Positions 641 to 32,558 of a stretch of DNA of 64,000 nucleotides are shown here, one piece after another; the first letter of the stretch is position 1; each line of letters begins with the position of its first letter. The position numbers and the translations under genes were made by a program. The notes under the pieces were generated by a model. The model was not told the origin of the DNA and searched no databases. It saw only the letters and a program-made list of their open reading frames with translations. The DNA lies in the NCBI GenBank assembly GCA_965197925.1, contig CBDAOC010000017.1, forward strand, positions 64,001 through 128,000, read 5' to 3'. Source of the DNA: Nitrososphaerales archaeon. Lineage in GTDB: Archaea; Thermoproteota; Nitrososphaeria; Nitrososphaerales; UBA213.

Positions 641-1108
641 ATGAAGTTTCTCGGTTTAACTCTACAATTTTTATTGAATGGTTTTCTTAATCCTTTAATG
701 TCTGTGGATAATAAATATGGTTTGACACATTTGGGTTATGCCAATACTTCTCACCAAGAGTTACCATTCTTAATACACGCAAAGACATACGTGCCATACC
801 TAATTGGGAGGTCTGGTCATACTATCATAGCAGTAGAGCTGAAAAAATTTGGCTGGAAGATAAAACTTTTAAAAAACAAAAACGAGTGTTATTTAATTGC
901 TGGTAAGAATAAACAGAAATGGTTCATACGGATAATTACTACAGATACAAGAATGCTTGAAGCGTTTCGTAACGTAAGATTATACATCAACAAGGAACTT
1001 GAAATAATGGCCGATGAAAATGACGCACTTCCTGTAATAGCAATAGTCACATCTGACAGCGCCGTGTTCTTATCTTCCAAAACACTTGTAGGATTGTCAC
1101 TTGTATAA
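641..1108 (+). CDS. hypothetical protein (true start possibly ATG near 698)
   Basis: 155-aa ORF, no motif recognised with confidence. Confidence 0.55.
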   Translation: MKFLGLTLQFLLNGFLNPLMSVDNKYGLTHLGYANTSHQELPFLIHAKTYVPYLIGRSGHTIIAVELKKFGWKIKLLKNKNECYLIAGKNKQKWFIRIITTDTRMLEAFRNVRLYINKELEIMADENDALPVIAIVTSDSAVFLSSKTLVGLSLV

Positions 1109-1149
1109 GAATGTGTCAGGAAAAGTGAATATGCTAGTGTTTATTATTA

Positions 1150-2226
1150 TTGATTGTGGACGATAGACTAGAGAGGGTAATCAATGATAAGATAGATGAT
1201 GCTATTCACAAATTGGATGAAATTGTTAAGATAACTGAGATATTGAAAGATATTGTAGATGATGAGGAACGGATATCCTTCGGCATAGCATTGGGGAGAA
1301 TCTATAATGCATTTCATTACCAAACCAGACGCGTCTTGAAACGAAATGCAACCGATGAAGAATTCACTGAATTTGTAGAGATCTTGTCTAAAAGGACAAC
1401 AGAAATCAAGATAGCGTTACGGGAACTAACCGATAGGAAAATCGAAATGCAGAAAAATCTTTCAGAAAAAATGAAAGTCTCAGGAATACTAGATGTCATT
1501 ACCAAAGAAATCTCATCAAAGAGAATAGTTGATACTCAAACGTATATTTCAGAAACAAGGGCAAGGGTGTGGAAGGCATTGAAGAGAGGTTTGCAGTTCG
1601 AAGCTTCTCTGGAAAGGTCCGAACTATTTTTGCAAAAACATGTCAATACAAGAAGGAGGTTTGTTGTACTAATAGCGGATTTGGTGGGTTCCACAAGAAT
1701 GACCAATACCCTACCCATAGAAAGACTTGCCACCATAATACAGACATTCAGTCAGGAAATGTTCTTCACAGTTTCAAACTTTGAGGGACGTGTGCTAAAG
1801 TATGTAGGTGATGCAGTAATTGCCTATTTCCCGGCTGACACAAACTTCTATATGGCAGTGGATAGAGCATTTAGTTGCGCCCGTTCCATGATTACAATTT
1901 TAGAGCAAGGCATAAACGTAGTTTTAAACCAATACGACTATCCAGAATTGAAGGTCAAAATAGGGATAGATTCTGGAATACATTCAGTAATACGATATGG
2001 TCTGGGAGAAAAATCACATGTAGATATTTTGGGCTATCCAATAAGTATGGCATCAAAGATAAACTCCATTGCACGAGCAAATCAAATAGTAATTAGTGAA
2101 AGCGTATACAAGAGTATTCATCCCTCCTCCAGGAATAGGTTTTCTGAAACACAATTGGATTCAAATTGGAATTATATAGATGAGAATACCGGTGAAATAT
2201 ATCGTCTATATACTTATGAAGGATAG
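1150..2226 (+). CDS. class III adenylate/guanylate cyclase with N-terminal helical domain
   Basis: VVLIADLVGST, KYVGDAVIAYF, KIGIDSG and DILGYPISMASKI motifs of class III nucleotide cyclases. Confidence 0.9.
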   Translation: MIVDDRLERVINDKIDDAIHKLDEIVKITEILKDIVDDEERISFGIALGRIYNAFHYQTRRVLKRNATDEEFTEFVEILSKRTTEIKIALRELTDRKIEMQKNLSEKMKVSGILDVITKEISSKRIVDTQTYISETRARVWKALKRGLQFEASLERSELFLQKHVNTRRRFVVLIADLVGSTRMTNTLPIERLATIIQTFSQEMFFTVSNFEGRVLKYVGDAVIAYFPADTNFYMAVDRAFSCARSMITILEQGINVVLNQYDYPELKVKIGIDSGIHSVIRYGLGEKSHVDILGYPISMASKINSIARANQIVISESVYKSIHPSSRNRFSETQLDSNWNYIDENTGEIYRLYTYEG

Positions 2227-2259
2227 AGATATAAACAGACCTCTCCAAACTTACTAAAA

Positions 2260-3099
2260 ATGGTCAACCTTCTAAACATATTTTCTATACTAGCAATATC
2301 AATTCTTGTTTTTAGCCCCATTCTGCAAGCATACAGTCAGCTTGAATTACTTAAAATAAACGAGATAGAAATTAATCCACAAGGTCCAATTGAAGACAAT
2401 CAGTGGGTGGAGCTCTTCAATCCTGGTTCTGTATTACTGGATCTTACTGGTTTTTTGATGAAGAGTTCAAGAATGGGAAGAACAAATCTAATTCCAACTG
2501 GATTGGTGATAGAACCCAATGGATATCTCGTGATATCGTTTAGTGGTAGAGTGTTTGATGAAACAGGTGATTCGATTGTTCTGTTAACTCCAGATTCGGT
2601 TCAGATTGATAGAACAGATATCTTTTCTGACAAAGAAGATGATGACAAATCTTGGCAGAGGTTTCCTAATGGTAAAGATACGGATGATAAACGTGATTGG
2701 CAATTAAGAAACTCAACGTTTGGAATATCAAATGGATTTCCTGTAGCAAGACAGAACTTCACTTTATCGGATCCAGTATTCATAGATATGGAGGGGATTA
2801 GGGCTAATTCCTTTTTGGCAGGTCAAATGGTTGGAATAAGGTCTGATATTGTGAGTAAGATGGATGAGGAACGTGTTTTTGCGTTTATAATACAGGTCAA
2901 AGACGAAGAAGGATTTCCATTACTAATCACTTGGATCGAAGATATAGTAATACTGCCTAACAGAACTATCAAACCTTCGTTATTCTTTCTTGCAGAGGCC
3001 AGAGGTGAATATACTGTTGAAGTTTTTGTATGGGCAAGTATTTCTCTGCCTAATCCCCTGGCTCCTCCAAAATATGGTTTGATTAGGGTAGCAGGTTAA
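2260..3099 (+). CDS. secreted lamin-tail-domain protein
   Basis: Signal peptide, then INEIEINP...QWVELFNP and SWQRFPNGKDTD lamin-tail-like motifs; Ig-like C-terminal region. Confidence 0.75.
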   Translation: MVNLLNIFSILAISILVFSPILQAYSQLELLKINEIEINPQGPIEDNQWVELFNPGSVLLDLTGFLMKSSRMGRTNLIPTGLVIEPNGYLVISFSGRVFDETGDSIVLLTPDSVQIDRTDIFSDKEDDDKSWQRFPNGKDTDDKRDWQLRNSTFGISNGFPVARQNFTLSDPVFIDMEGIRANSFLAGQMVGIRSDIVSKMDEERVFAFIIQVKDEEGFPLLITWIEDIVILPNRTIKPSLFFLAEARGEYTVEVFVWASISLPNPLAPPKYGLIRVAG

Positions 3100-3153
3100 C
3101 CTATAGTATAATTTATTTAACTGTTTTTGGATCAGAGTTGGAGTTGGGCATAA

Positions 3154-5256
3154 ATGAGCTATGACATCTTTCTTGCTCCTAAATCCATCGCCGTTATAGG
3201 TGCTTCAGAAAGGCCTGGAACTGTTGGTAAGGCCATAATCTCAAATATCTTAAGTGGGTATAAGGGTACTATTTATCCAATAACACCATCTCATGATTCC
3301 GTTTTTGGCAAAAAGGCTTACAAGAACGTTATGGAAGTTCCAACAAGTATAGACCTTGCCGTAATAGTAACTCCGAGCAAGGTTGTGCCTGCGGTAATGG
3401 AAGAATGTGGAAGGAAAGGCATCAAAGGTGCGATCATAATTACAGCAGGTTTCAAAGAAGTTGGTGGAGAGGGAGAAGTACTGCAGAAACAAATTGCAGA
3501 GATCAGTAAAAAATATGGAATAAGGATCATAGGTCCCAACTGTTTGGGCGTAATGAACCTTTCCCCACATACTATGATGAATTCCACATTTCTGAAGATT
3601 ACCCCAAAGACAGGCAATATAGCGTTAATATCGCAGAGCGGTGCAATATGCGCTGCACTGGTTGAAGACGCAATTGCCCAAGATATAGGATTCTCTGCTG
3701 TTATAAGCATTGGAAACAAAGTGGATATGAACGAAACTGATCTGCTTGCAATGCTTGAAAATGATGACCAGACAAAAGTTATCGTTATGTATTTAGAAGA
3801 TATAAGCAATGGTAGAAAGTTCATTGAAGTATGCAGGAGAATTAGCAAAAAATCTCAGTATAAGAAACCAATCTTGGTATTAAAAGCAGGTCGCACTCCG
3901 GAAGGTGCAAGGGCAGCAATGTCACATACAGGTGCATTGATGGGTGCTGACGAAGTTTATGATGCAATGTTTAAGCAGGCTGGTGTTATTCGTGTAGATG
4001 GAATGCAGGAGCTCTTTGATTATGCTACTGCACTTGCAAAGCAACCACTTCCCGGAGAAGAAGTAGTAATTGTAACAAATGCTGGTGGACCTGGAATAAT
4101 CTCTACAGACGCAATATCCAATTATGGACTGAAGATGGCCGATATAGAAAGCTTAAGACCAAAGATCAATGAGATGATACCCTCGTATGGCTCATCACGC
4201 AACCCTGTAGATATTGTTGGAGACGCTGATTATGGCAGGTTTGAAAACGTATTGTCTGTAGTTCTTGATCATCCAAATTGTGGCGCTGTAGTAGTAATGT
4301 GTACTCCATCTGCAACGCTGGATTACGATGGATTAGCCCGTGTTGTTGTAAAGATGTCAAAGAGTAAGGGAAAAACTATGCTCGCGAGTCTTATGGGTCT
4401 TGCAGAGGGAACCGAAAACAAAAGAATTCTGTCTGAAGGCGGAGTTCCACATTATATGTATGCAGAGCTTGCAATGAGGGCTCTCAAATCTATGTATGAT
4501 TATAAATCTTGGCTGAGAGTGCTGGAAAACGAAGTGAAGACATTCAAGGTAGAAACGGAAACAGTTAGAGGGGTATTCAATAATGTCAAGAAACAGAATA
4601 GAAATTACTTAATTGAAGAGGAGGGGTATGAGGTATTAAAGGCCTACGGTTTTCCAGTACCAAAGAGTATTCTAGCAAAGGATGAAAATGAGTGTGTAAA
4701 AGCAGCTCAAGAGATAGGCTGGCCAGTTGTGATTAAGATTGCTTCACCCGATGTTATACATAAATCAGATGCTGGGGGTGTCAAAATAAATTTAGCAAGT
4801 GAGCAGGAAGTCAGAGCTGCATACAGAAGCATAATATCAAGTGTTAAGAATTACAAATCAGATGCAGAGATTCTTGGGGTACTCGTGCTGGAACTTGTGA
4901 AAGGAGGTAAGGAGACTATTATTGGAACAAAGAGGGATCCTAAATTTGGGCCATTGTTGATTTTTGGTATGGGAGGGATATATGTCGAAGTTCTCAAAGA
5001 TGTCATATTTAGACTTGTACCTATAAATGAATATGAAGCAAGGGAGATGATAGGTTCGATAAAGTCTAAGGAGTTGTTGAAAGGAGTAAGGGGAGAAAAG
5101 CCTTCTGATGTGGATGCGCTAGTAGATTGCATTTTGAGACTCTCTCAACTTGTTGTTGATTTTCCTGAAATAGCTGAATTCGATATGAATCCTTTGCTTG
5201 TATTAGAAGAGGGAAAAGGATGCAGGACTCTTGATGTTCGAATTAGCCTTACCTAG
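3154..5256 (+). CDS. ADP-forming acyl-CoA synthetase, probably 4-hydroxybutyrate--CoA ligase of the HP/HB cycle
   Basis: CoA-binding PKSIAVIGAS, GPNCLG, SQSGA, phospho-His SHTGAL, ATP-grasp HKSDAGGV; directly upstream of the 4-HB-CoA dehydratase as in other thaumarchaea. Confidence 0.88.
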   Translation: MSYDIFLAPKSIAVIGASERPGTVGKAIISNILSGYKGTIYPITPSHDSVFGKKAYKNVMEVPTSIDLAVIVTPSKVVPAVMEECGRKGIKGAIIITAGFKEVGGEGEVLQKQIAEISKKYGIRIIGPNCLGVMNLSPHTMMNSTFLKITPKTGNIALISQSGAICAALVEDAIAQDIGFSAVISIGNKVDMNETDLLAMLENDDQTKVIVMYLEDISNGRKFIEVCRRISKKSQYKKPILVLKAGRTPEGARAAMSHTGALMGADEVYDAMFKQAGVIRVDGMQELFDYATALAKQPLPGEEVVIVTNAGGPGIISTDAISNYGLKMADIESLRPKINEMIPSYGSSRNPVDIVGDADYGRFENVLSVVLDHPNCGAVVVMCTPSATLDYDGLARVVVKMSKSKGKTMLASLMGLAEGTENKRILSEGGVPHYMYAELAMRALKSMYDYKSWLRVLENEVKTFKVETETVRGVFNNVKKQNRNYLIEEEGYEVLKAYGFPVPKSILAKDENECVKAAQEIGWPVVIKIASPDVIHKSDAGGVKINLASEQEVRAAYRSIISSVKNYKSDAEILGVLVLELVKGGKETIIGTKRDPKFGPLLIFGMGGIYVEVLKDVIFRLVPINEYEAREMIGSIKSKELLKGVRGEKPSDVDALVDCILRLSQLVVDFPEIAEFDMNPLLVLEEGKGCRTLDVRISLT

Positions 5257-23117: not shown

Positions 23118-24230
23118 ATGAATGCAAGTACAAAGGAAAGGATTATCTTCCATATCGATTTTGATTACTTCTTTGCTCAATGCGAAGAACTTAGAACACC
23201 AGAATTAAGGGGTAAACCAGTAGTCGTATGTGTATATTCTGGCAGAACAGAGGATTCAGGAGCAGTGAGTACGGCCAATTATGAAGCTCGTAAATACAAT
23301 GTAAGATCTGGTATGCCTATTAATCTGGCGAAGAAGAGACTAAAGGATATATCAGATGTTTCGTTACTCCCTGTAGATCATGAATACTATAAAGAGATGT
23401 CTGATAAAGCAATGAACATTATCCAAAATCATGCCGACAAGTTTGAGATAGCCAGCATTGATGAAGCATTTATAGATGTTGGTGAAGCTCTGAAATACGA
23501 ATTTACGAGAGCTGTAGAACTTGCCGTTAAAATAAAGGATCAATTAAGAAATGTTCTAAAATTATCATGTTCAATAGGAATAGCATCGAATAAGTTGGTT
23601 GCCAAGATCGCTTCCGACTTTGAAAAACCAGACGGTCTTGTGATAGTCCATCCAGGTGATACTCAGAGTTTCCTCAGAAATTTGGATGTAAGTAAGGTCG
23701 TTGGAATTGGGAAGAAAACTGAAGAATGCCTGAATCAAATGAACGTAAAAACAATTGGACAACTTGCTGAATTAGATATCTACTCGTTAACAAAGATGTT
23801 CGGAAGGAAAAATAGTGTATATATTTTCAACTCCTCTAGAGGTATTGATAATGAACCAGTTAATGAAGATGATTCTGTCACTCAGATAAGCAGGATAATG
23901 ACTCTGAAAAAAAGCATCAATTCCGTGGGTGAAATATATGAGGATTTGGCATCCATATGCCGAGACGTTCATAAATCTGCGACAGATCGGGGTCTTTCAT
24001 TTAAGTCCGTAGGTATAATATTGATATTAGATGATCTTAGCACAAGGACAAAATCCAAAAGTCTAAGAGCGCCGTCAATGGGCTACCACGAGATTTTCAA
24101 AACATCAATATCTCTTTTTGAAGAAGCCTTATCTGGAAGTCAATTAATGGTAAGGAGGATAGGAGTTAAAATTTCTGAATTGATCATTTGTAGCGGTCAA
24201 GATACTTTGTTCAAATTCATGGAGGAATAA
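23118..24230 (+). CDS. dinB: Y-family DNA polymerase IV (Dpo4/DinB)
   Basis: FHIDFDYFFAQCE, STANYEAR, SIDEAFID, KIASDFEKPDG. Confidence 0.96.
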   Translation: MNASTKERIIFHIDFDYFFAQCEELRTPELRGKPVVVCVYSGRTEDSGAVSTANYEARKYNVRSGMPINLAKKRLKDISDVSLLPVDHEYYKEMSDKAMNIIQNHADKFEIASIDEAFIDVGEALKYEFTRAVELAVKIKDQLRNVLKLSCSIGIASNKLVAKIASDFEKPDGLVIVHPGDTQSFLRNLDVSKVVGIGKKTEECLNQMNVKTIGQLAELDIYSLTKMFGRKNSVYIFNSSRGIDNEPVNEDDSVTQISRIMTLKKSINSVGEIYEDLASICRDVHKSATDRGLSFKSVGIILILDDLSTRTKSKSLRAPSMGYHEIFKTSISLFEEALSGSQLMVRRIGVKISELIICSGQDTLFKFMEE

Positions 24231-24799: not shown

Positions 24800-26071
24800 G
24801 CACCTTTCGAGGCAGTAGAGGGCCGTCGTCTTTGGATCATGGTTGGGATGGTCACTTGGTTATGATCTAGTGCTAATGCTTCTTGTAACCCCATATTTAA
24901 GTCAGCCCTTCTTCCCATCTGAAGATCCCACTTTTAGTTTATTAGTAACATTCGCAACATATGTCATAACGCTGATAATGCGGCCTGTAGGTGGTGCGTT
25001 GTTCGGCAGTTTAGGAGATAGACATGGTAGAAAGAAACCTATGATAATTACTATCATGGGTTTTTCTATTGCTACATTCGCAACAGGTTTGTTACCTACC
25101 TGGCAGATGGTAGGCATATTTGCGCCATTTCTGTTAGTACTCTTACGGTTAGCTCAGGGACTCTTTTCAGGGGGTGAATGGGCTAGCGGTGCAGTGCTCA
25201 CGATGGAGACTACCAAGATCAAGCCGGGGATTACTTTCTAGATTCGTACAGAATGGATTTACATTGGGATTCCTCATTGCGTCGATAACATACCAATTTG
25301 CATCTGTTGCATACACTGAGGACACCTTGGAAATGGGGTAGAGGGTTATGTTCTTCACAGGCATAATTCCGGGTTTGGTAGCTCTTTTCGTCAGATTTAA
25401 GATGAAAGAATCCGAAGTATGGTTGGAGAAGGTGCGCCAGAAGAAGATTGAGAGGGCAACCTTGCGTAAGGTTATGTTAAATGTTGAACATAGAAAACGT
25501 TTCTTCCTTTCTTTAATGATCATGACAGGTCTAATGTATGCTTATTACACATCAATTGGCTTTATGCCAACATTTCTTCAACAGTATGATCATCTTGAGC
25601 GACCAGAGGTTGCCACTTATGATTGCCGCTACAGTTTCATCCCTGCTCGGACATATTTTTACTGGCTTTATCAGTTAGTACATAGGTAGAAAGAAGTCCA
25701 TAGCGATATTTGCTCTTGCAGCTATACTGCTAGCTGTTCCTATGTTAATTGGTCTTTATAATGCTACTCATATTTCAGAAAGGATAATCTATACAGGTGT
25801 GTTAGTGTTTGTAACAACAACTGGATTCGGACCTATACCAGCATTTCTATCAGAGAGATTCCCAACGGAAATTAGAAACAGTGCGTGTGGTTTCGTATAC
25901 AACGGCGGGTTGATATTCGGCTCCTGGGCACCGTTGATAGTAGTCAACTTATTATCCCAAGCAGGATCTCTTGTTCCAATTATCCTTGCTTTAAATATTG
26001 TGGTAGGTTCAATAATAATTCTTGTTGGTACAAAACTCAATCCAGAGACACGTGATACGGACTTGACATAA
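24800..26071 (+). pseudogene. MFS metabolite:H+ symporter, multiply frameshifted
   Basis: MRPVGGALFGSLGDRHGRK, LRLAQGLFSGGEW and SERFPTEIR lie in separate collinear fragments. Confidence 0.88.
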
Positions 26072-26307: not shown

Positions 26308-27186
26308 TCAACTGATCCCAAAACTGATCATTTAGTGAATAATTGACGATCATTTGGATCTATTTGCAATGCTGCCCGTAGCAGATCATGAAATTTCAGG
26401 AGATAACAGGTGAACAATGGAAGATGATATCACCGCATCTCCCCAAGCCAGCCAGAACCGGAAGGCCAAGGGCAGACGACAGAAAGACAGTCAACGGAAT
26501 CCTGTTTGTCGGGATAACAGGATGCAGGTGGACTGGGATGTCACAAAGGTACGGCTCCAAATCAACTGCGCACCGCAGACTGCAGAACTGGCAGCGACGT
26601 GGAATATGGAAGAATATCCTCTCCGCTGCAGTCAAATCAGCCCACAGATCAGGCAAGATGCAGCTGCAAAAAACGGTCGATTCGTCATCAGTTCCGGCCA
26701 AAAAAGGGGAAGCGTCATAGGATACAACGGATTCAACAGGATTTCAGGCACAAAAATACACGTTGCGGTGGAACAAAACGGACTGCCAGTCTCAGTAGTA
26801 ATGTCCTGCAAATCAGCATGACTCTGCAAGATTTGTAGACGTGATGGATGGCATCTCACAATATCTGGATGAGAGATCTATCAGAAAAATTGCGCGGTGC
26901 CAAGCAGACAAGGGCTATGATGCAGAATTCATCAGGAAATACCTCACCAAAAGAAAAATCTCTGACTGCATGCCTTACAGAAAAAACAGTAAGACACAAC
27001 AACAAAATGATAATACAGAACAATACCTATACGGCAAGACGCGCTATGTTGTGGAGAGATTCTTTGCCTGGTTGAAGAATGGGTTCCACAGAACCAGGAT
27101 CAGATATGAGAAGAATGCACAAAACTATCTGGCATTTGTTATCATTTCGTCGATTATGATGTATTGGAGAGTATTGGGATGACTTC
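26308..27186 (+). mobile_element. IS5-family element (type C), copy 2
   Basis: Imperfect TIRs (CAACTGATCCCAAAAC / GTATTGGGATGACTTC); orfA 26388-26720; orfB with ADKGYD and RYVVERFFAWL, frameshifted. Confidence 0.92.
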
Positions 27187-27194
27187 TATATTAG

Positions 27195-27740
27195 TTATTG
27201 TTTCTTTATGGAGAGGACCTTTTGAACTTCGCTAATACTGTTTATGAACTTCTTTTTCGCCTCAAAAACATCAGATACTTTTACAACTACCTCTGTAGAA
27301 GAGAGCATTACATCCTTTACAACTAATGGTGCACTGAGGCCAAGGAGTTCACTGAGCACGTCAAATATATTACTAAATTTAGCACCACCCCTGTATGTAT
27401 AAATTGTATTCCCATCGTTCATCTTAGGAGTAGGTTCTATAGGAATGATAAGGTCCGATGATGTTATTTCGGTTATGAAGGTAGTCATGTCATTATTAAT
27501 AGTATCATCAAGTGTATCTCTCTGCAGCAATAGTTTCTCTCTAGTGCTTTCAAGCATTCCAAGTTCATCATGATACTCAACGCCAATCATTTTTGCAAAA
27601 GCTGATTCGGTTGCGCTTTTTATTGGTAGTTCATGCATCTTGACACCTATATCTGACAATTCATTATCAACGTCAGAAAGTTCCAGTCTGTTAGTCTTAA
27701 TTCTTCCAGCAAGTTCTTCTAAAAAATGAAAGTCAACCAT
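27195..27740 (-). CDS. hypothetical protein with N-terminal coiled coil, downstream partner of the tubulin gene
   Basis: Intact 181-aa ORF starting 11 bp after the tubulin stop, with GTGATGG RBS-like sequence; heptad-like N-terminal half. Confidence 0.8.
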   Translation of the reverse strand: MVDFHFLEELAGRIKTNRLELSDVDNELSDIGVKMHELPIKSATESAFAKMIGVEYHDELGMLESTREKLLLQRDTLDDTINNDMTTFITEITSSDLIIPIEPTPKMNDGNTIYTYRGGAKFSNIFDVLSELLGLSAPLVVKDVMLSSTEVVVKVSDVFEAKKKFINSISEVQKVLSIKKQ

Positions 27741-27751
27741 ATTCCATCACT

Positions 27752-29134
27752 TTAGCTGAAGTGATGAACAACATCCATAAGACTTTGTTTAAATTCTTCG
27801 TTCGCAAGTCCCCATTTAGCATACTCTTCCCTAAATGAATCCCATGATTGCTCCGCCTCTGTGGCAATATCGAGTATCTTTTGTCCTATAGCTTTGGTAT
27901 TTATCAGGATTGTAACATGAGCCGGCTCATTTTCCATTATGGGTATTTTTACAAATATCATCCTTGAATCCTCGATATTAAACCGTTCTCTTATCACCAT
28001 CTTTAGTGCTTCTCTTTCTTTCAAGTCAAATTCGCCCCTTACTTTAACCAAGGCACAGCAAGAATCCCTTGAACCTCCTTTATCCCTTATTGCATTCTCA
28101 TCTATATCGAATAGAATTGCATCTTCTTTGTGGTGAACTGCGTCCATAATTCCCTCCATGGTGTTATTATTGTCAATATTCATTGGGTTCCAATGACCAC
28201 CTGAAGGTACAAGAGGTATTACCCAAGGTATTGCGAATTTTGGGCGTTTGGTCGCCAACCACGTTCTGTAGTTAGACATATCCCACTCTGTCTCCCTTGC
28301 AAATGAAGCTATAAACATAGATATTGCATTTGCAGCTATGATATTCATACCTCTATAGTCCTTCCATCCTGCTTCATGCTCCTTGGGTAAGTCGTCTATT
28401 ATCGATTGCATTTTATCAAGTTTATTTTTGAACTGTTGTGAATACTTTCGCAATGTTTTGTTATCCAATAATAATGAACAGTCTGAGAACTTGATTTGAT
28501 ATTCTAGATTCATGACTATGTTTATTGCCGCTGCTTCAAATATTACTGGATCCCATCCGAACTCAGGGAGCAATCCTATGGTTGCTAGTGTTGCATGTGC
28601 TCCAATATCCTTTTTTATGTATTCTATGAAGGCACTTGCAAATGAACTGCCTGTCCCTCCGCCCATTGCGAAAGGAATGGTGAAGCCTCTAACCGGTTCA
28701 GGTGAGAGCGATGCCAGCTGTTTTTGAATATCGAACTTGGAGGAAACTTCCTTCGTGAAGCGTGTTCGGCCCTCAGCCCAATTCCTCGCTGCTCCTCCTG
28801 TTCCATGTATTACATGCTTATCCCTTAACGCAAAAAGATCTGGGTATGATTGAAGGATTAGATTAGCCGCTCGAGGATCTAGGTCTACGAGAAGCGCTCT
28901 TGGAATTAGAGGTATTTCTCCTCCATTATACGAGTTGGGGAACCTTAGGATAGTGCTTCCATATCTTTTCAAGACTTTCGACTCCTCCTTCTCACCATGC
29001 AGTACTGGCTTCAATGGATCTGCGCCTACGTCTAAAAGAAGCCTCCTGTATGATTCTGCCCCCAATCCTATACCACAATGTCCGAAGCAGGTCATCAACA
29101 CCGGGGCAGGTGGAAGCGGAGTAAATTTAGCCAA
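27752..29134 (-). CDS. tubulin-like GTPase (eukaryote-type tubulin homolog, artubulin-like)
   Basis: FGHCG (cf. GQCG), PRALLVDLDP (PRAVLVDLEP), GAARNWAEG (GAGNNWAKG), GGGTGSS, LDNKTL (IDNEAL), FREEYAKWGLANEEF (FLHWYTGEGMDEMEF). Confidence 0.93.
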   Translation of the reverse strand: MAKFTPLPPAPVLMTCFGHCGIGLGAESYRRLLLDVGADPLKPVLHGEKEESKVLKRYGSTILRFPNSYNGGEIPLIPRALLVDLDPRAANLILQSYPDLFALRDKHVIHGTGGAARNWAEGRTRFTKEVSSKFDIQKQLASLSPEPVRGFTIPFAMGGGTGSSFASAFIEYIKKDIGAHATLATIGLLPEFGWDPVIFEAAAINIVMNLEYQIKFSDCSLLLDNKTLRKYSQQFKNKLDKMQSIIDDLPKEHEAGWKDYRGMNIIAANAISMFIASFARETEWDMSNYRTWLATKRPKFAIPWVIPLVPSGGHWNPMNIDNNNTMEGIMDAVHHKEDAILFDIDENAIRDKGGSRDSCCALVKVRGEFDLKEREALKMVIRERFNIEDSRMIFVKIPIMENEPAHVTILINTKAIGQKILDIATEAEQSWDSFREEYAKWGLANEEFKQSLMDVVHHFS

Positions 29135-29218
29135 ATTTCAGCCCTAATATTCATGGCAAACCCCCTTTCTTTAATCATAGAGTGTAACAAATTCCGTTTT
29201 TGTATAAATTGTTATTTA

Positions 29219-29734
29219 CTAATCTATAGTTATTACTCTTTCAGGTCCTGCTGGTCTTCGATCTAAATCACTATACCCTGTTGGATTTATGGTAGGTTCT
29301 AACTCCAAACAATTTGTGTTTTCAATAAAGTCTAAAACAAAGAGTCCCTCTGCACGTAGGTTTCTATCATAATCATTGTTCATAGTTCTACAATGGATAC
29401 TAGCATTAACTGTTCCATCATGTGTCTGAAATCTTAAATTCAAACTCAATATGTTATTTTTTTCAAAATTAGAAACTCCTACCTCTAAGTTTCCACCATG
29501 TCTCTGGTTTCGCAGTTCTTCTTTAGCATCAGGGAATCTTTCATAAAATGCTGCATAGGAGGGATGTGCTTTGAGTTTCTTTAGCAGTTCTTCATCACTC
29601 ATGAATGAATTTCCAATTTCTGCCCATGGATTGTTTTCAATGATGTTTGGTAAGAATGTATACCAGAACAAGCCAAACATAGAGATTGTAATTCCCAATC
29701 CTACAAAATAAGTAATTTTTCTTAACGTAATCAT
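29219..29734 (-). CDS. membrane-anchored hypothetical protein
   Basis: N-terminal TM helix, intact 171-aa ORF. Confidence 0.65.
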   Translation of the reverse strand: MITLRKITYFVGLGITISMFGLFWYTFLPNIIENNPWAEIGNSFMSDEELLKKLKAHPSYAAFYERFPDAKEELRNQRHGGNLEVGVSNFEKNNILSLNLRFQTHDGTVNASIHCRTMNNDYDRNLRAEGLFVLDFIENTNCLELEPTINPTGYSDLDRRPAGPERVITID

Positions 29735-30636: not shown

Positions 30637-32558
30637 GAGCTTATCCGAAAATTAACATCATAGCCTAATTGTTTATACCGAAACAGATCTAGATCTGTCC
30701 TCTCTAGCTAAATTTGTGATAAAAGCTAAGAAAAAGAGCATGCCGACCATATGGAATATACCAGACAATCTATGGGTAGAGTTCAAACTAGTGTTGCTAC
30801 CAGAGAAACCAGCAAGAACAGTTGGAAGGCCAGCTGTGCCATTTAGAAAAGTGTTGAATGGAATACTGTATGTATTAAGAACTGGATGCCAGTGGAAGAA
30901 GGTATCTAAAGAATTTGGTTCTGGCTCAACTTGCCATGCAAGATTTCAGGAATGGATTGGGATAGGAGTATTCAAGAAGGTATGGAAGAGGCTGCTGGAA
31001 ATATATGATCAACTCATCTCAAAACCCTACAATACATCAAAAATGATGCAAGATTAACAAATGCCAGATAGTTTTCTGCCGTTCTTTCATACCTGATTCT
31101 TGTTCTGTGAAATCCATTCTTGAGCCATGCAAGGAATCTCTCAACTACAAATCTTGTCTTGTTGTAATGTTTGCAATCATTATTTTGAAAGATGAACTTG
31201 GAATTTATTTTGTATGGGATGCAACATGCAATATTTCTATCCCACAACCACAAATACATTCTGATGTATTTTGCATCATGCCCTTTGTCTGCATAAACTG
31301 ATTCTATCTGTTGTATTGAATCATCATCAAGATAGTCTGAAATTGATCCTGTAACATCCATGCATTTTGTACTGTCATGTTCATTTGCTGGACTCAACAG
31401 TATGGATATTGGAAATCCGTTACCCTCTACTGCGGCATGTATTTTTGTACCTGTTATTCTCTTGAATCCATTATATCCAGTTACATTGCCCCTTTTTTAT
31501 TAGGAATGGATGAAGAGTCAACTGATTTTTTTAGACTAATTTTGCCAGATTTATGTGCTGAGTGAATAGTACGTGATAGAATCTTTTTCCAGATTCCTTT
31601 TTGTTGCCATTTGTTTAACCTTCTGTTTGCAGTAGAATCATCACCATATCTTTTTGGCATATCGTCCCATCGGCATCCAGTAGTTAGAACATGGATTATT
31701 CCGTTAATGATTTTTCTATCATAATCCCTAGGCCTGCCAGTTTTTGCATGTGGTGGTATGTGTGATTCCATCATACTCCACTGTTTGTCTGATAATTCTT
31801 GGAATTTCATAAAATAATTTTAGATGTCGCTATTCATGGATCTAAATGGTCGCTAAAAATTGTCTAAATGGTTAGTTTTGAGATGAGTTGGATGAATTGA
31901 AGAGCATGGGATGGGACTGGCAATCCATGGATAGCGTACCGAAGGCCCCATTAGGGGGAAAACGACCGTAGCAAACCCAACGGATAGAGGCAAGCTAGGT
32001 ACCAAACGTCACATGCTTGTTGATAGAAGAGGAGTACCTCTCATCTGTAATTACTGAAGCAAACAAGCACGATATGAAATCAGCCTTTCCTACAATAGAT
32101 AGCATTGTTGTTGATAGGCCCAAAGTTAAACAGAACATATGCATGAATAGGATATGATTTCCCTGAGATAGAGTATGGAGTTAGGAAGGGGATATGTAGA
32201 TCACATTCATCGTAAAGGTGAAGTGTTGAAAAAGAATTTATACAAAGCAAAGAGATGGGTTGTAGAAAGAACCGCATCTTGGCATAACAGGTTCAGAAAG
32301 TTATTGGTAAGGTTCGAGAAGAGAGAGGAAAATTATCAGGCGCTAGTAGAATTTGCTGACTGCCTGATAGTGTACAGAGCGATATATTGGTAGTGTCATA
32401 AACACGTTAATGCAACTGTTTCTAGTATCTACTATCTACAATACTAATAAAATCAATAGTAAGAAAACTAAACCTGACAGTTTGAACTAATATTCTTGCA
32501 TTCTAAATGTTATCATTTCTACCAATCATTAACTATCAGCTAGAATTTTAGGATAGGC
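30637..32558 (+). mobile_element. IS5-family element (type B), copy 2, containing a nested type A IS
   Basis: GAGCTTATCCGAAAATT left end; right end GGATAGGC (2 nt short); TAA on both sides; orfA is broken at YD/ELK by the nested element. Confidence 0.93.
31010..31890 (-). mobile_element. IS5-family element (type A), copy 2, nested
   Basis: Perfect 16-bp TIR; 3-bp TSD GAT duplicated within the host transposase. Confidence 0.96.

Follow-up and report, generated by a model that had tools for sequence, protein, structure and literature searches.

An artubulin gene and its constant 181-aa neighbour in a Nitrososphaerales archaeon

In the division between FtsZ and tubulin, few prokaryotic protein families side with tubulin. 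Artubulins are one such family, and published trees disagree on how they relate to Asgard and eukaryotic tubulins. An artubulin gene lies in a stretch of 64,000 nucleotides from the genome of a Nitrososphaerales archaeon (assembly GCA_965197925.1, contig CBDAOC010000017.1, positions 64,001 to 128,000), hereafter the window. The gene occupies positions 27752..29134 of the window on the reverse strand. Its stop codon is separated by an 11-base spacer (AGTGATGGAAT, 27741..27751, read directly) from the ATG of a second reverse-strand gene (27195..27740; the reading frame starts at 27740 and ends at 27195), which encodes a 181 amino acid (aa) protein of unknown family, hereafter the partner, recognised by tblastn and by profile conservation. 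We read the locus as an artubulin orthologue that forms a two-gene unit with the partner and would act as a filament with an adaptor, a reading to which we give a probability of about 0.75. The window copy is a member of the known artubulin family and adds no new kind of protein. The family occurs patchily, in four or more families of the order and not just in Nitrosoarchaeum, and its constant neighbour is the uncharacterised 181-aa protein; the Snf7 neighbour is lineage-specific. That the partner is constant and the Snf7 link limited by lineage usefully refines the picture of artubulins, and the small partner gene is a more useful lead than the artubulin copy itself.

The artubulin gene is a single open reading frame (ORF) of 460 codons plus stop, without internal stop, and begins with TTG. 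A nearby upstream ATG is out of frame. TTG is a credible start, since orthologues conserve the protein from residue 2 to residue 13, with P6, L7, P9 and P11 each kept in 90% or more of 36 aligned rows. A TTTATA hexamer, seen by eye only, lies about 70 bases upstream of it. An earlier note, made from the letters of the window, had placed a eukaryote-like tubulin here on the strength of eight short strings, and both the ORF and all eight strings are present in the 460-aa translation: GHCG (residues 18-21), PRALLVDLDP (78-87), GAARNWAEG (114-122), GFTIPFAMGGGTGSS (150-164), LDNKTL (223-228), YRGMNIIA (260-267), ETEWDMSNY (281-289) and FREEYAKWGLANEEF (434-448). The protein ends in ...VVHHFS, without an acidic tail after the H12-like helix, as had been described. 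The Tubulin/FtsZ GTPase domain PF00091 matches residues 16-231 with 58.7 bits (cut-off 33) and sets the N-terminal GTPase domain with loops T1-T6 at 28442..29089. The T7/H8-start motif ETEWDMSNY maps to 28268..28294, as located by the family alignment and by MAFFT and hhalign comparison with tubulins. Two C-terminal helices, residues 415-440 and 445-459, which would correspond to tubulin H11/H12 on the evidence of an AlphaFold2 (AF2) model, structural alignment and hhalign, are encoded at 27758..27892, on the reverse strand like the other two features. Neither Tubulin_C (PF03953) nor FtsZ_C was detected in the ORF by the Pfam scan at E<=1; the region without a Tubulin_C match still aligns with tubulins by hhalign and by fold.

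A word-indexed search returned 159 relatives of the ORF at 52-98% identity, annotated at source as 'cell division protein FtsZ' (NCBI) or 'tubulin gamma' (JGI). Together with the PF00091 score of 58.7 bits, these relatives put the tubulin resemblance far beyond chance. The genome records that carry the gene include the cultured Ca. Nitrosotalea devanaterra, with the artubulin-partner pair on its chromosome (L028), metagenome-assembled genomes (MAGs) of Ca. Nitrosotenuis and many Nitrosopumilaceae MAGs. Decisive for the identity of the ORF is protein P0067, which is 74% identical to the window artubulin across 100% of its length and agrees nearly letter for letter with At_CanNi340345009 over the alignment blocks printed in Additional file 1 of Yutin & Koonin 2012 (PMC3349469). 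That file holds the aligned sequences At_CanNi340345009 and At_CanNi329765295, and Additional files 3 and 4 of the same paper give these labels as Ca. Nitrosoarchaeum limnia SFB1 and koreensis MY1. Three genomes carry artubulin copies 97-98% identical to P0067. At one of these Nitrosoarchaeum-type loci (L096), the Pfam-scanned neighbours comprise Snf7, dCMP deaminase, family-B DNA polymerase, TATA-binding protein (TBP), a major facilitator superfamily (MFS) transporter and triosephosphate isomerase, the same neighbour genes that are listed in the Fig. 2B legend of PMC3349469. Because P0067 is virtually the founding Nitrosoarchaeum protein and is 74% identical over the full length, the window ORF is almost certainly, as judged by sequence comparison, an orthologue of the artubulins described in 2012.

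The window protein and the Nitrosoarchaeum artubulins (limnia SFB1, koreensis MY1) are of nearly equal length (460 versus 461 aa) and have in common the motifs GHCGIGLGAE, PRALLVDLDPRAANLIL, GAARNWAEG, PFAMGGGTGSS, RETEWDMSNYRTWL and the C-terminal LMDVVH(H/Q)FS, as well as the 181-aa gene directly downstream. Since these motifs are identical to the published artubulin sequences, the residues starred in Fig. 1 of PMC3349469 as present in tubulin and artubulin, not in FtsZ, are very probably present in the window protein too. The best outside matches of the window protein are tubulins, with gamma-tubulin near 1e-13, as is described for the Nitrosoarchaeum proteins in PMC3349469. The loci differ in that Nitrosoarchaeum has an upstream Snf7 gene, whereas the window locus has none, as is described for N. 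uzonensis (PMC3835317). In that account N. uzonensis has a single ftsZ gene and, away from Snf7, a single artubulin-like gene; the two PF00091 genes that we find in each of one Nitrosotenuis MAG and N. devanaterra, a thaumarchaeal FtsZ-like of about 330-350 aa and an artubulin, fit this account. The window pair differs further in being bracketed by insertion sequences (IS) of the IS4/IS5 type, in missing the usual upstream SHOCT-domain and tetratricopeptide repeat (TPR) genes, and in its genome also having a canonical FtsZ, a type found in 0/114 genomes of family f9. A distinct archaeal tubulin lineage, as proposed in the earlier note, does not survive these comparisons. Such a lineage, separate from artubulins, Asgard tubulins and BtubA/B, could draw on the missing Snf7 and on a host that belongs to a small family (9 genomes) which also keeps canonical FtsZ. 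It is nevertheless very improbable in view of the 74% full-length identity to the Nitrosoarchaeum-type artubulin, the shared motifs and the shared downstream partner, and the representative search returned just one other full-length family member, the cluster representative P0121 at 53% identity. The caveat attached to that proposal, that similarity to a described artubulin would lower the novelty and not the tubulin call, applies.

Outside its own family the artubulin finds tubulins. The top 60 matches of a PDB sequence search were tubulins without exception, among them the Asgard proteins AtubB (1.9e-17) and AtubA (1.3e-14), gamma-tubulin (about 3e-13) and beta-tubulin (about 1e-12); the best matches span residues 11-233 only. 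Among 1.84 billion cluster representatives searched with the artubulin, 443 proteins matched at E<=0.001. Pfam was run on 30 of the best 150 representative matches, one of which is an artubulin family member. Tubulin_C was present in 24 of the remaining 29 (23 above the curated cut-off) and FtsZ_C in none. Identity of the artubulin to bona fide tubulins is just 17-23% in the joint alignment. By hhalign, a 36-sequence artubulin profile aligned with a 17-sequence tubulin profile at a probability of 99.9 and E 2.7e-31 over 403 columns, spanning positions 16-461 of 469, with the C-terminal stretch paired with the AF..Y / EF..A region. Against canonical FtsZ the probability was 1.9 and E 0.026, a contrast that is somewhat overstated because the FtsZ profile is shallow, built from only 10 close sequences. 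The FtsZ equivalog TIGR00065 (NCBIfam) gave no match to the artubulin ORF at E<=1; as a control, the 368-aa FtsZ of the same genome passes it with 310.9 bits (cut-off 295.2).

The predicted fold points the same way. The AF2 model of the artubulin, with a mean predicted local distance difference test score (pLDDT) of 74.6 and a predicted template modelling score (pTM) of 0.79, was aligned structurally to 48,161 PDB representatives. The closest folds were tubulins: OdinTubulin (Z 33.4, 397 residues aligned, root mean square deviation (rmsd) 3.4), BtubA (33.2), yeast beta-tubulin (32.9), AtubA/B2 (32.3), gamma-tubulin (31.8) and chain A of the fly alpha/beta-tubulin heterodimer (30.7). These alignments comprise 388-404 residues and reach residue 460 in seven tubulin-family chains. 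CetZ, FtsZ, TubZ and PhuZ share the PF00091 GTPase domain and the core fold, but score lower and align over shorter stretches: CetZ at Z 25.5 and 24.7 over 313-316 residues, stopping at 436-437; FtsZ at 22.4 over 294 residues, stopping at 414; and TubZ/PhuZ at 17.0-19.4. CetZ and TubZ/PhuZ were compared by fold; the profile comparison covered tubulins and FtsZ. The model has helices at 415-440 and 445-459, with pLDDT 75-91 in these blocks, and the predicted helices align with tubulins to residue 460. The earlier note had called the protein a tubulin and not FtsZ, CetZ or TubZ, equated its C-terminus with H11-H12, and suggested a tubulin-versus-FtsZ profile comparison and a monomer structure prediction as checks. 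Both were run, and the call stands on both (E 2.7e-31 versus 0.026; Z 31-33 versus at most 25.5), as do the two helices in the model. Of the outcomes that the note had named as fatal to the call, a grouping within FtsZ/CetZ/TubZ or a model lacking H11-H12, neither appeared, as far as predictions go. Because sequence search, profile comparison, predicted fold and the failed FtsZ equivalog concur, we assign the artubulin, on its sequence and model, to the tubulin type.

Within the tubulins, published trees disagree on where artubulins belong, and long-branch effects are documented for them. Artubulins are sister to eukaryotic tubulins in the tree of PMC3349469, grouped with TubZ in the analysis given in PMC4202323, inside the tubulin family in the later analysis of PMC9871819, and of unresolved position on a very long branch according to PMC13394414. 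One 459-aa representative (P0130), a prokaryote-like tubulin, aligned to artubulin residues 77-453 in the representative search, is 19% identical in the joint alignment and seems to share the artubulin insertion before H7; its best PDB matches are Asgard AtubB (3.6e-27), then AtubA and BtubA. P0130 was considered as a bridge between artubulins and Asgard tubulins and dropped; a search of 401 genomes from the phylum did not find it.

Across 36 artubulin family members T1 reads G-H-(C/A)-G and T4 GGGTG(S/G/A)(S/A), and RETEWD(M/F)SN(Y/F) is nearly invariant, with E281, T282, E283, W284, D285, S287 and N288 fixed. The nucleotide pocket looks intact, because G18, G21, G159, G160, G162, N225 and N264 are invariant in artubulins and tubulin representatives alike, and T161 and N205 nearly so. 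The MAFFT joint alignment and, independently, hhalign place D285 in the column of alpha-tubulin D251 and N288 in that of E254 (numbering counted on an alignment of alpha-tubulin P0183 to a PDB alpha-tubulin, E 6e-228). In alpha-tubulin, E254 activates hydrolysis on the neighbouring subunit. None of the 36 artubulins has an acidic residue in that column, which holds Asn throughout, and D285 is retained; the catalytic position looks non-acidic. The altered key sites that had been flagged at first sight are thus real and fixed family-wide (His in T1, GGGTG(S/G/A)(S/A) in T4, Asn at E254). Compared with tubulins, the artubulin also has about 25 additional residues between T6 and H7 (roughly 229-258 in the joint alignment). 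With bona fide tubulins (alpha, beta, gamma, Odin, AtubA/B, BtubA/B) it shares the whole predicted fold including H11-H12, the full-length profile alignment and the retained glycines and asparagines of T1-T6. It differs from them by GHCG in place of GQCG in T1, a final S/A instead of G in T4, Asn at the alpha-E254 column, the missing acidic tail and an unrecognised PF03953; and whereas alpha/beta tubulins come as a gene pair, artubulin is a single gene. The catalytic T7 position fixed as Asn and the constant partner offer concrete constructs and mutants for a first biochemistry.

The partner gene follows the artubulin gene with great regularity. In 73 of the 80 related loci tblastn places it directly 3' of the artubulin gene, on the same strand. 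At the seven exceptions (L017, L020, L021, L025, L031, L032, L070) a contig edge falls within the tubulin gene, which leaves 73 of 73 testable loci. The partner profile matches 59/59 artubulin-positive genomes in a sample of the order, and in 12/12 pairs compared by eye the two matches share a strand, and that of the partner starts 5-21 bases beyond the tubulin match. In the window, the short same-strand gap of 11 bases suggests co-transcription. An alignment of 21 partner rows has a mean column identity of 70%; the partner at locus L004 contains one in-frame stop. The protein itself resembles little else: no Pfam family and no DNA-binding domain matched among 21 members scanned, Snf7 (PF03357) gave no match in these members at E<=1, the profile search found no PDB sequence relative (best E 0.086), and the model had no Foldseek match at E<=0.001 and no ESM Atlas match. 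The AF2 model (mean pLDDT 84.4) consists of a helical hairpin (residues 4-37 and 59-92), a small alpha/beta part and a helix at 158-180. In a VIA-align comparison of residues 1-92 the CHMP4B hairpin came first (Z 10.1, rmsd 1.8, 78 residues aligned). Another 49 helical hairpins, unrelated to it, score within about 1.4 Z, and the value is below the level that the tool regards as meaningful for helical folds. As generic hairpins tie, we conclude nothing from the CHMP4B/ESCRT-III hairpin. The remainder of the partner model contains strands, unlike ESCRT-III. The partner may already figure in earlier literature: a 'conserved hypothetical protein' is listed in the Fig. 2B legend of PMC3349469, and coiled-coil genes without known function around archaeal tubulin-like genes are mentioned in PMC9871819.

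Both genes are intact and, from their substitution patterns, under purifying selection. Against L005, the nearest usable orthologue, the ratio of nonsynonymous to synonymous substitution rates (dN/dS) is 0.038 for the artubulin and 0.078 for the partner; synonymous sites are saturated in most other orthologue comparisons. The artubulin proportion of nonsynonymous differences (pN) is 0.058-0.148 and that of synonymous differences (pS) at least 0.68. The earlier suggestion that the gene is under selection thus holds, at a dN/dS of about 0.04. In three metatranscriptome runs, all from one study and labelled 'sponge metagenome', RNA contigs span 28034-29108 with 0-1 differences, a weak hint that the artubulin gene is expressed. 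They extend neither over the partner nor over the 3' third of the artubulin gene, contig gaps being uninformative in such data.

How such a pair could work is suggested by analogy with other tubulin-superfamily proteins. The single-copy artubulin, with the full predicted tubulin fold of GTPase domain, intermediate domain and H11-H12 surface helices, would bind GTP and form head-to-tail homopolymeric protofilaments. Hydrolysis would probably be slow, or dependent on another acidic residue (E281/E283) or a cofactor, because the position of the T7 catalytic Glu is an invariant Asn and the adjacent Asp is kept. The partner with its long helical hairpin would most likely bind the polymer as adaptor or regulator. 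We regard this filament-plus-adaptor mechanism as about an even bet.

Several points weigh against the proposed reading. The Asn at the catalytic position, His for Gln in T1 and Ser for the last Gly of T4 could mean a changed or lost GTPase activity. AF2 confidence is middling, with pLDDT below 50 at T7 residues 284-286 and in the loop 307-320, and, Tubulin_C being undetected, the C-terminal assignment is that of the profile-profile alignment and the AF2 model. The RNA-library contigs may contain DNA, and neither strand nor transcript ends are visible in them. Among the artubulin papers considered, none was found to report GTP binding, polymerisation or other biochemistry of an artubulin. Non-polymerising relatives exist in the phylum, as the FtsZ homologue of N. 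maritimus is described as not assembling into polymers (PMC3684127). The partner family, finally, is also present without artubulin. Its profile occurs in 109 of 301 order genomes (107/299 without the unpublished genomes G202 and G287), 50 of which have no artubulin; therefore the partner is not made for artubulin alone.

These partner relatives are of several kinds. Genus g14 has full-length relatives at 35-37% identity in 6/6 genomes, without artubulin, and at the two g14 loci that were fetched the relative adjoins a radical-SAM gene, about 190 kb from the sole PF00091 gene. Family f12 has shorter relatives in 40 of 114 genomes, in frames of 119-158 aa that match partner residues from about 45 to 181 (mostly from about 57); a diacylglycerol-kinase-like gene stands alongside in 2 of the 3 f12 loci inspected. 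Examples of relatives without artubulin are L099 5116-5763 and L100 5104-5649, together with L101-L103. Partner fragments with in-frame stops and no artubulin (G015:C30:2061-2477, G226:C12:39861-39977, G282:C10:58934-59068) look like relics of the loss of a pair. One further partner gene (G033) has the contig end 55 bases upstream, which puts its upstream gene beyond check.

Some of these points also feed the alternative that the artubulin makes no dynamic filaments. It might bind GTP and hydrolyse it no longer, or be a tubulin-fold protein that regulates or nucleates as a monomer or small oligomer, perhaps held in a stable complex with the 181-aa protein. The invariant Asn at the alpha-tubulin E254 column, the family-wide replacements in T1 (Gln to His) and T4 (last Gly to Ser/Ala), the non-polymerising N. 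maritimus FtsZ (PMC3684127) and the presence of gamma-tubulin among the best sequence and fold matches speak for such a protein. The T7 aspartate D285 and two nearby invariant glutamates are retained, however, and strong purifying selection preserves the longitudinal-interface elements and H11-H12. Beta-tubulin, moreover, polymerises despite lacking the catalytic Glu. We consider a protein without dynamic filaments unlikely.

The Snf7 gene beside artubulin, on which the original functional proposal for the family rested according to PMC3349469, is not a general property of artubulin loci. At L096 a 206-aa Snf7 (PF03357, 37.7 bits) lies directly upstream of artubulin, and L097 and L098 have a 206-aa ORF in the same position, unscanned by Pfam. 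With the Nitrosoarchaeum-type Snf7 as query, tblastn found no match in any of the 80 other loci; the upstream sequence exceeds 800 bases in 74 of these. Only Nitrosoarchaeum-type loci have the adjacent Snf7, which makes the feature lineage-specific. In the window, neither Pfam on neighbouring ORFs nor tblastn with the Nitrosoarchaeum-type Snf7 gave a Snf7, and the single PF03357 match of the window genome is on another contig (C20). The earlier note was thus right that no Snf7/ESCRT-III gene is adjacent. As a distinguishing mark of this gene the absence fails: it is described for N. uzonensis (PMC3835317) and recurs in 80 of 80 related loci. What commonly lies directly upstream is a gene for a 99-129-aa protein (62/80 loci), with a SHOCT domain in three scanned examples; a TPR protein is encoded upstream of this SHOCT-type gene in 53/80 loci. 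Examples of these upstream genes are at L028 4743-5853, L010 4639-5818 and L012 5430-5819. Both genes are missing from the window. A TPR gene beside BtubA/B is named in the Fig. 2B legend of PMC3349469, which the TPR neighbour of artubulin recalls; this may be mere synteny of close relatives.

Nitrosoarchaeum-type loci carry a same-strand trio of Snf7, artubulin and partner, and the partner hairpin is of ESCRT-III length. In a bolder version of our reading, neither artubulin nor the 181-aa protein would work without the other: the two would be halves of one cytoskeletal module, in which the partner hairpin couples a slow-hydrolysing polymer to membranes or to Cdv/ESCRT-III-based division. If true, a functional connection between tubulin and ESCRT, older than eukaryotes, would exist in these archaea. 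We consider this decidedly doubtful.

The distribution of artubulin was assessed in a sample of 301 genomes from the order, all with a completeness of 90% or more. Artubulin is present in 59 of them (58/300 without the unpublished genome G202). Besides the window genome, the positives belong to its own family (5/5), f9 (37/114), f7 (12/33) and f8 (4/8); the gene was found in 0 of the 114 f12 genomes and in none of the remaining families of this sample. Among 9 genomes of the host's own family that were searched, artubulin occurs in 7, including 5/5 with completeness of at least 90% and contamination of at most 5%. Identity to the window artubulin is 82-89% in its own family, 72-80% in f9, 58-59% in f8 and 53-57% in f7, so that two artubulin subclades stand out, at 72-89% and 53-59%. 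Because identity declines with taxonomic distance, recent transfer fits the distribution less well than descent with repeated losses.

This bears on a further alternative, a TubZ/PhuZ-like DNA-segregation tubulin with a small adaptor on a mobile element. Type III partition loci consist of two genes, for a tubulin-like GTPase and a small protein, and the layout of the artubulin pair would be analogous. The distribution is patchy, and inverted IS4/IS5 elements, 77% complementary in their arms (27030-27185 and 31011-31166), flank a 3.8-kb segment in which the artubulin pair is accompanied by two unconserved ORFs of 171 and 149 aa. Yet TubZ/PhuZ are the weakest fold matches (Z 17.0-19.4), and the partner has no DNA-binding domain match. 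Identity tracks taxonomy from 82-89% in the own family down to 53-57% in f7, which, like the decayed partner remnants without artubulin in G015, G226 and G282, fits descent and losses. Other artubulin loci have ordinary chromosomal neighbours and no IS. A segregation system on a mobile element is hardly credible here.

The IS4/IS5-family pieces (DUF4096 and DDE_Tnp_1, in different frames, by Pfam) lie at 26388-27182, 30716-31397 and 31481-31810. Word depth in a DNA run (X1) is about 940-4370 for the IS against 32 for the gene pair, and the IS family is therefore multicopy. Joints across 27186-31004/31010 seen in this run were rejected as repeat artefacts, with only 25-26 letters on the short side and located at IS ends. 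Next to the IS, at 24843-26071, three ORFs of 132, 113 and 109 aa, the first and third matching MFS_1 or Sugar_tr, are probably the remains of a frameshifted MFS/sugar-transporter gene. The heavy pseudogenisation described for the surroundings thus holds locally, in the MFS gene split over three ORFs and in the IS4/IS5 transposase pieces. An intact gene for a Y-family (impB/mucB/samB) DNA polymerase lies at 23118-24230. A homologue of it (about 47-50% identity) is found about 1.7 kb 3' of the partner in 7 of the 80 loci, which include all four MAGs labelled Nitrosotenuis.

Besides artubulin, the window genome has two FtsZ-type genes, which makes three genes of the tubulin superfamily. The canonical 368-aa FtsZ (TIGR00065, 310.9 bits) is on contig C1 (L001 979-2085), and a divergent thaumarchaeal FtsZ-like of 322 aa (66.3 bits) on contig C20 (L002 1003-1971), both on the minus strand. 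The canonical type occurs in 25 of the 301 order genomes (24/300 without the unpublished G287). Extra copies of the artubulin pair or of the partner are seen in two genomes. G003, of the same family as the window genome, has two artubulin-partner pairs (contigs C69 and C7), 89% and 82% identical to the window artubulin, and G007 has a second, solitary partner copy (C2:8598-9137 and C2:125801-126343). Duplication could account for these copies, as could a MAG assembled from mixed strains. Four RNA runs labelled 'sponge metagenome' (X11-X13 and X20) hold parts of 27195-29734, and contigs from three of them match at 99% identity or more. Such sponge-labelled runs, the IS load and a genome of 2.9 Mb hint at a host-associated lifestyle of this archaeon.

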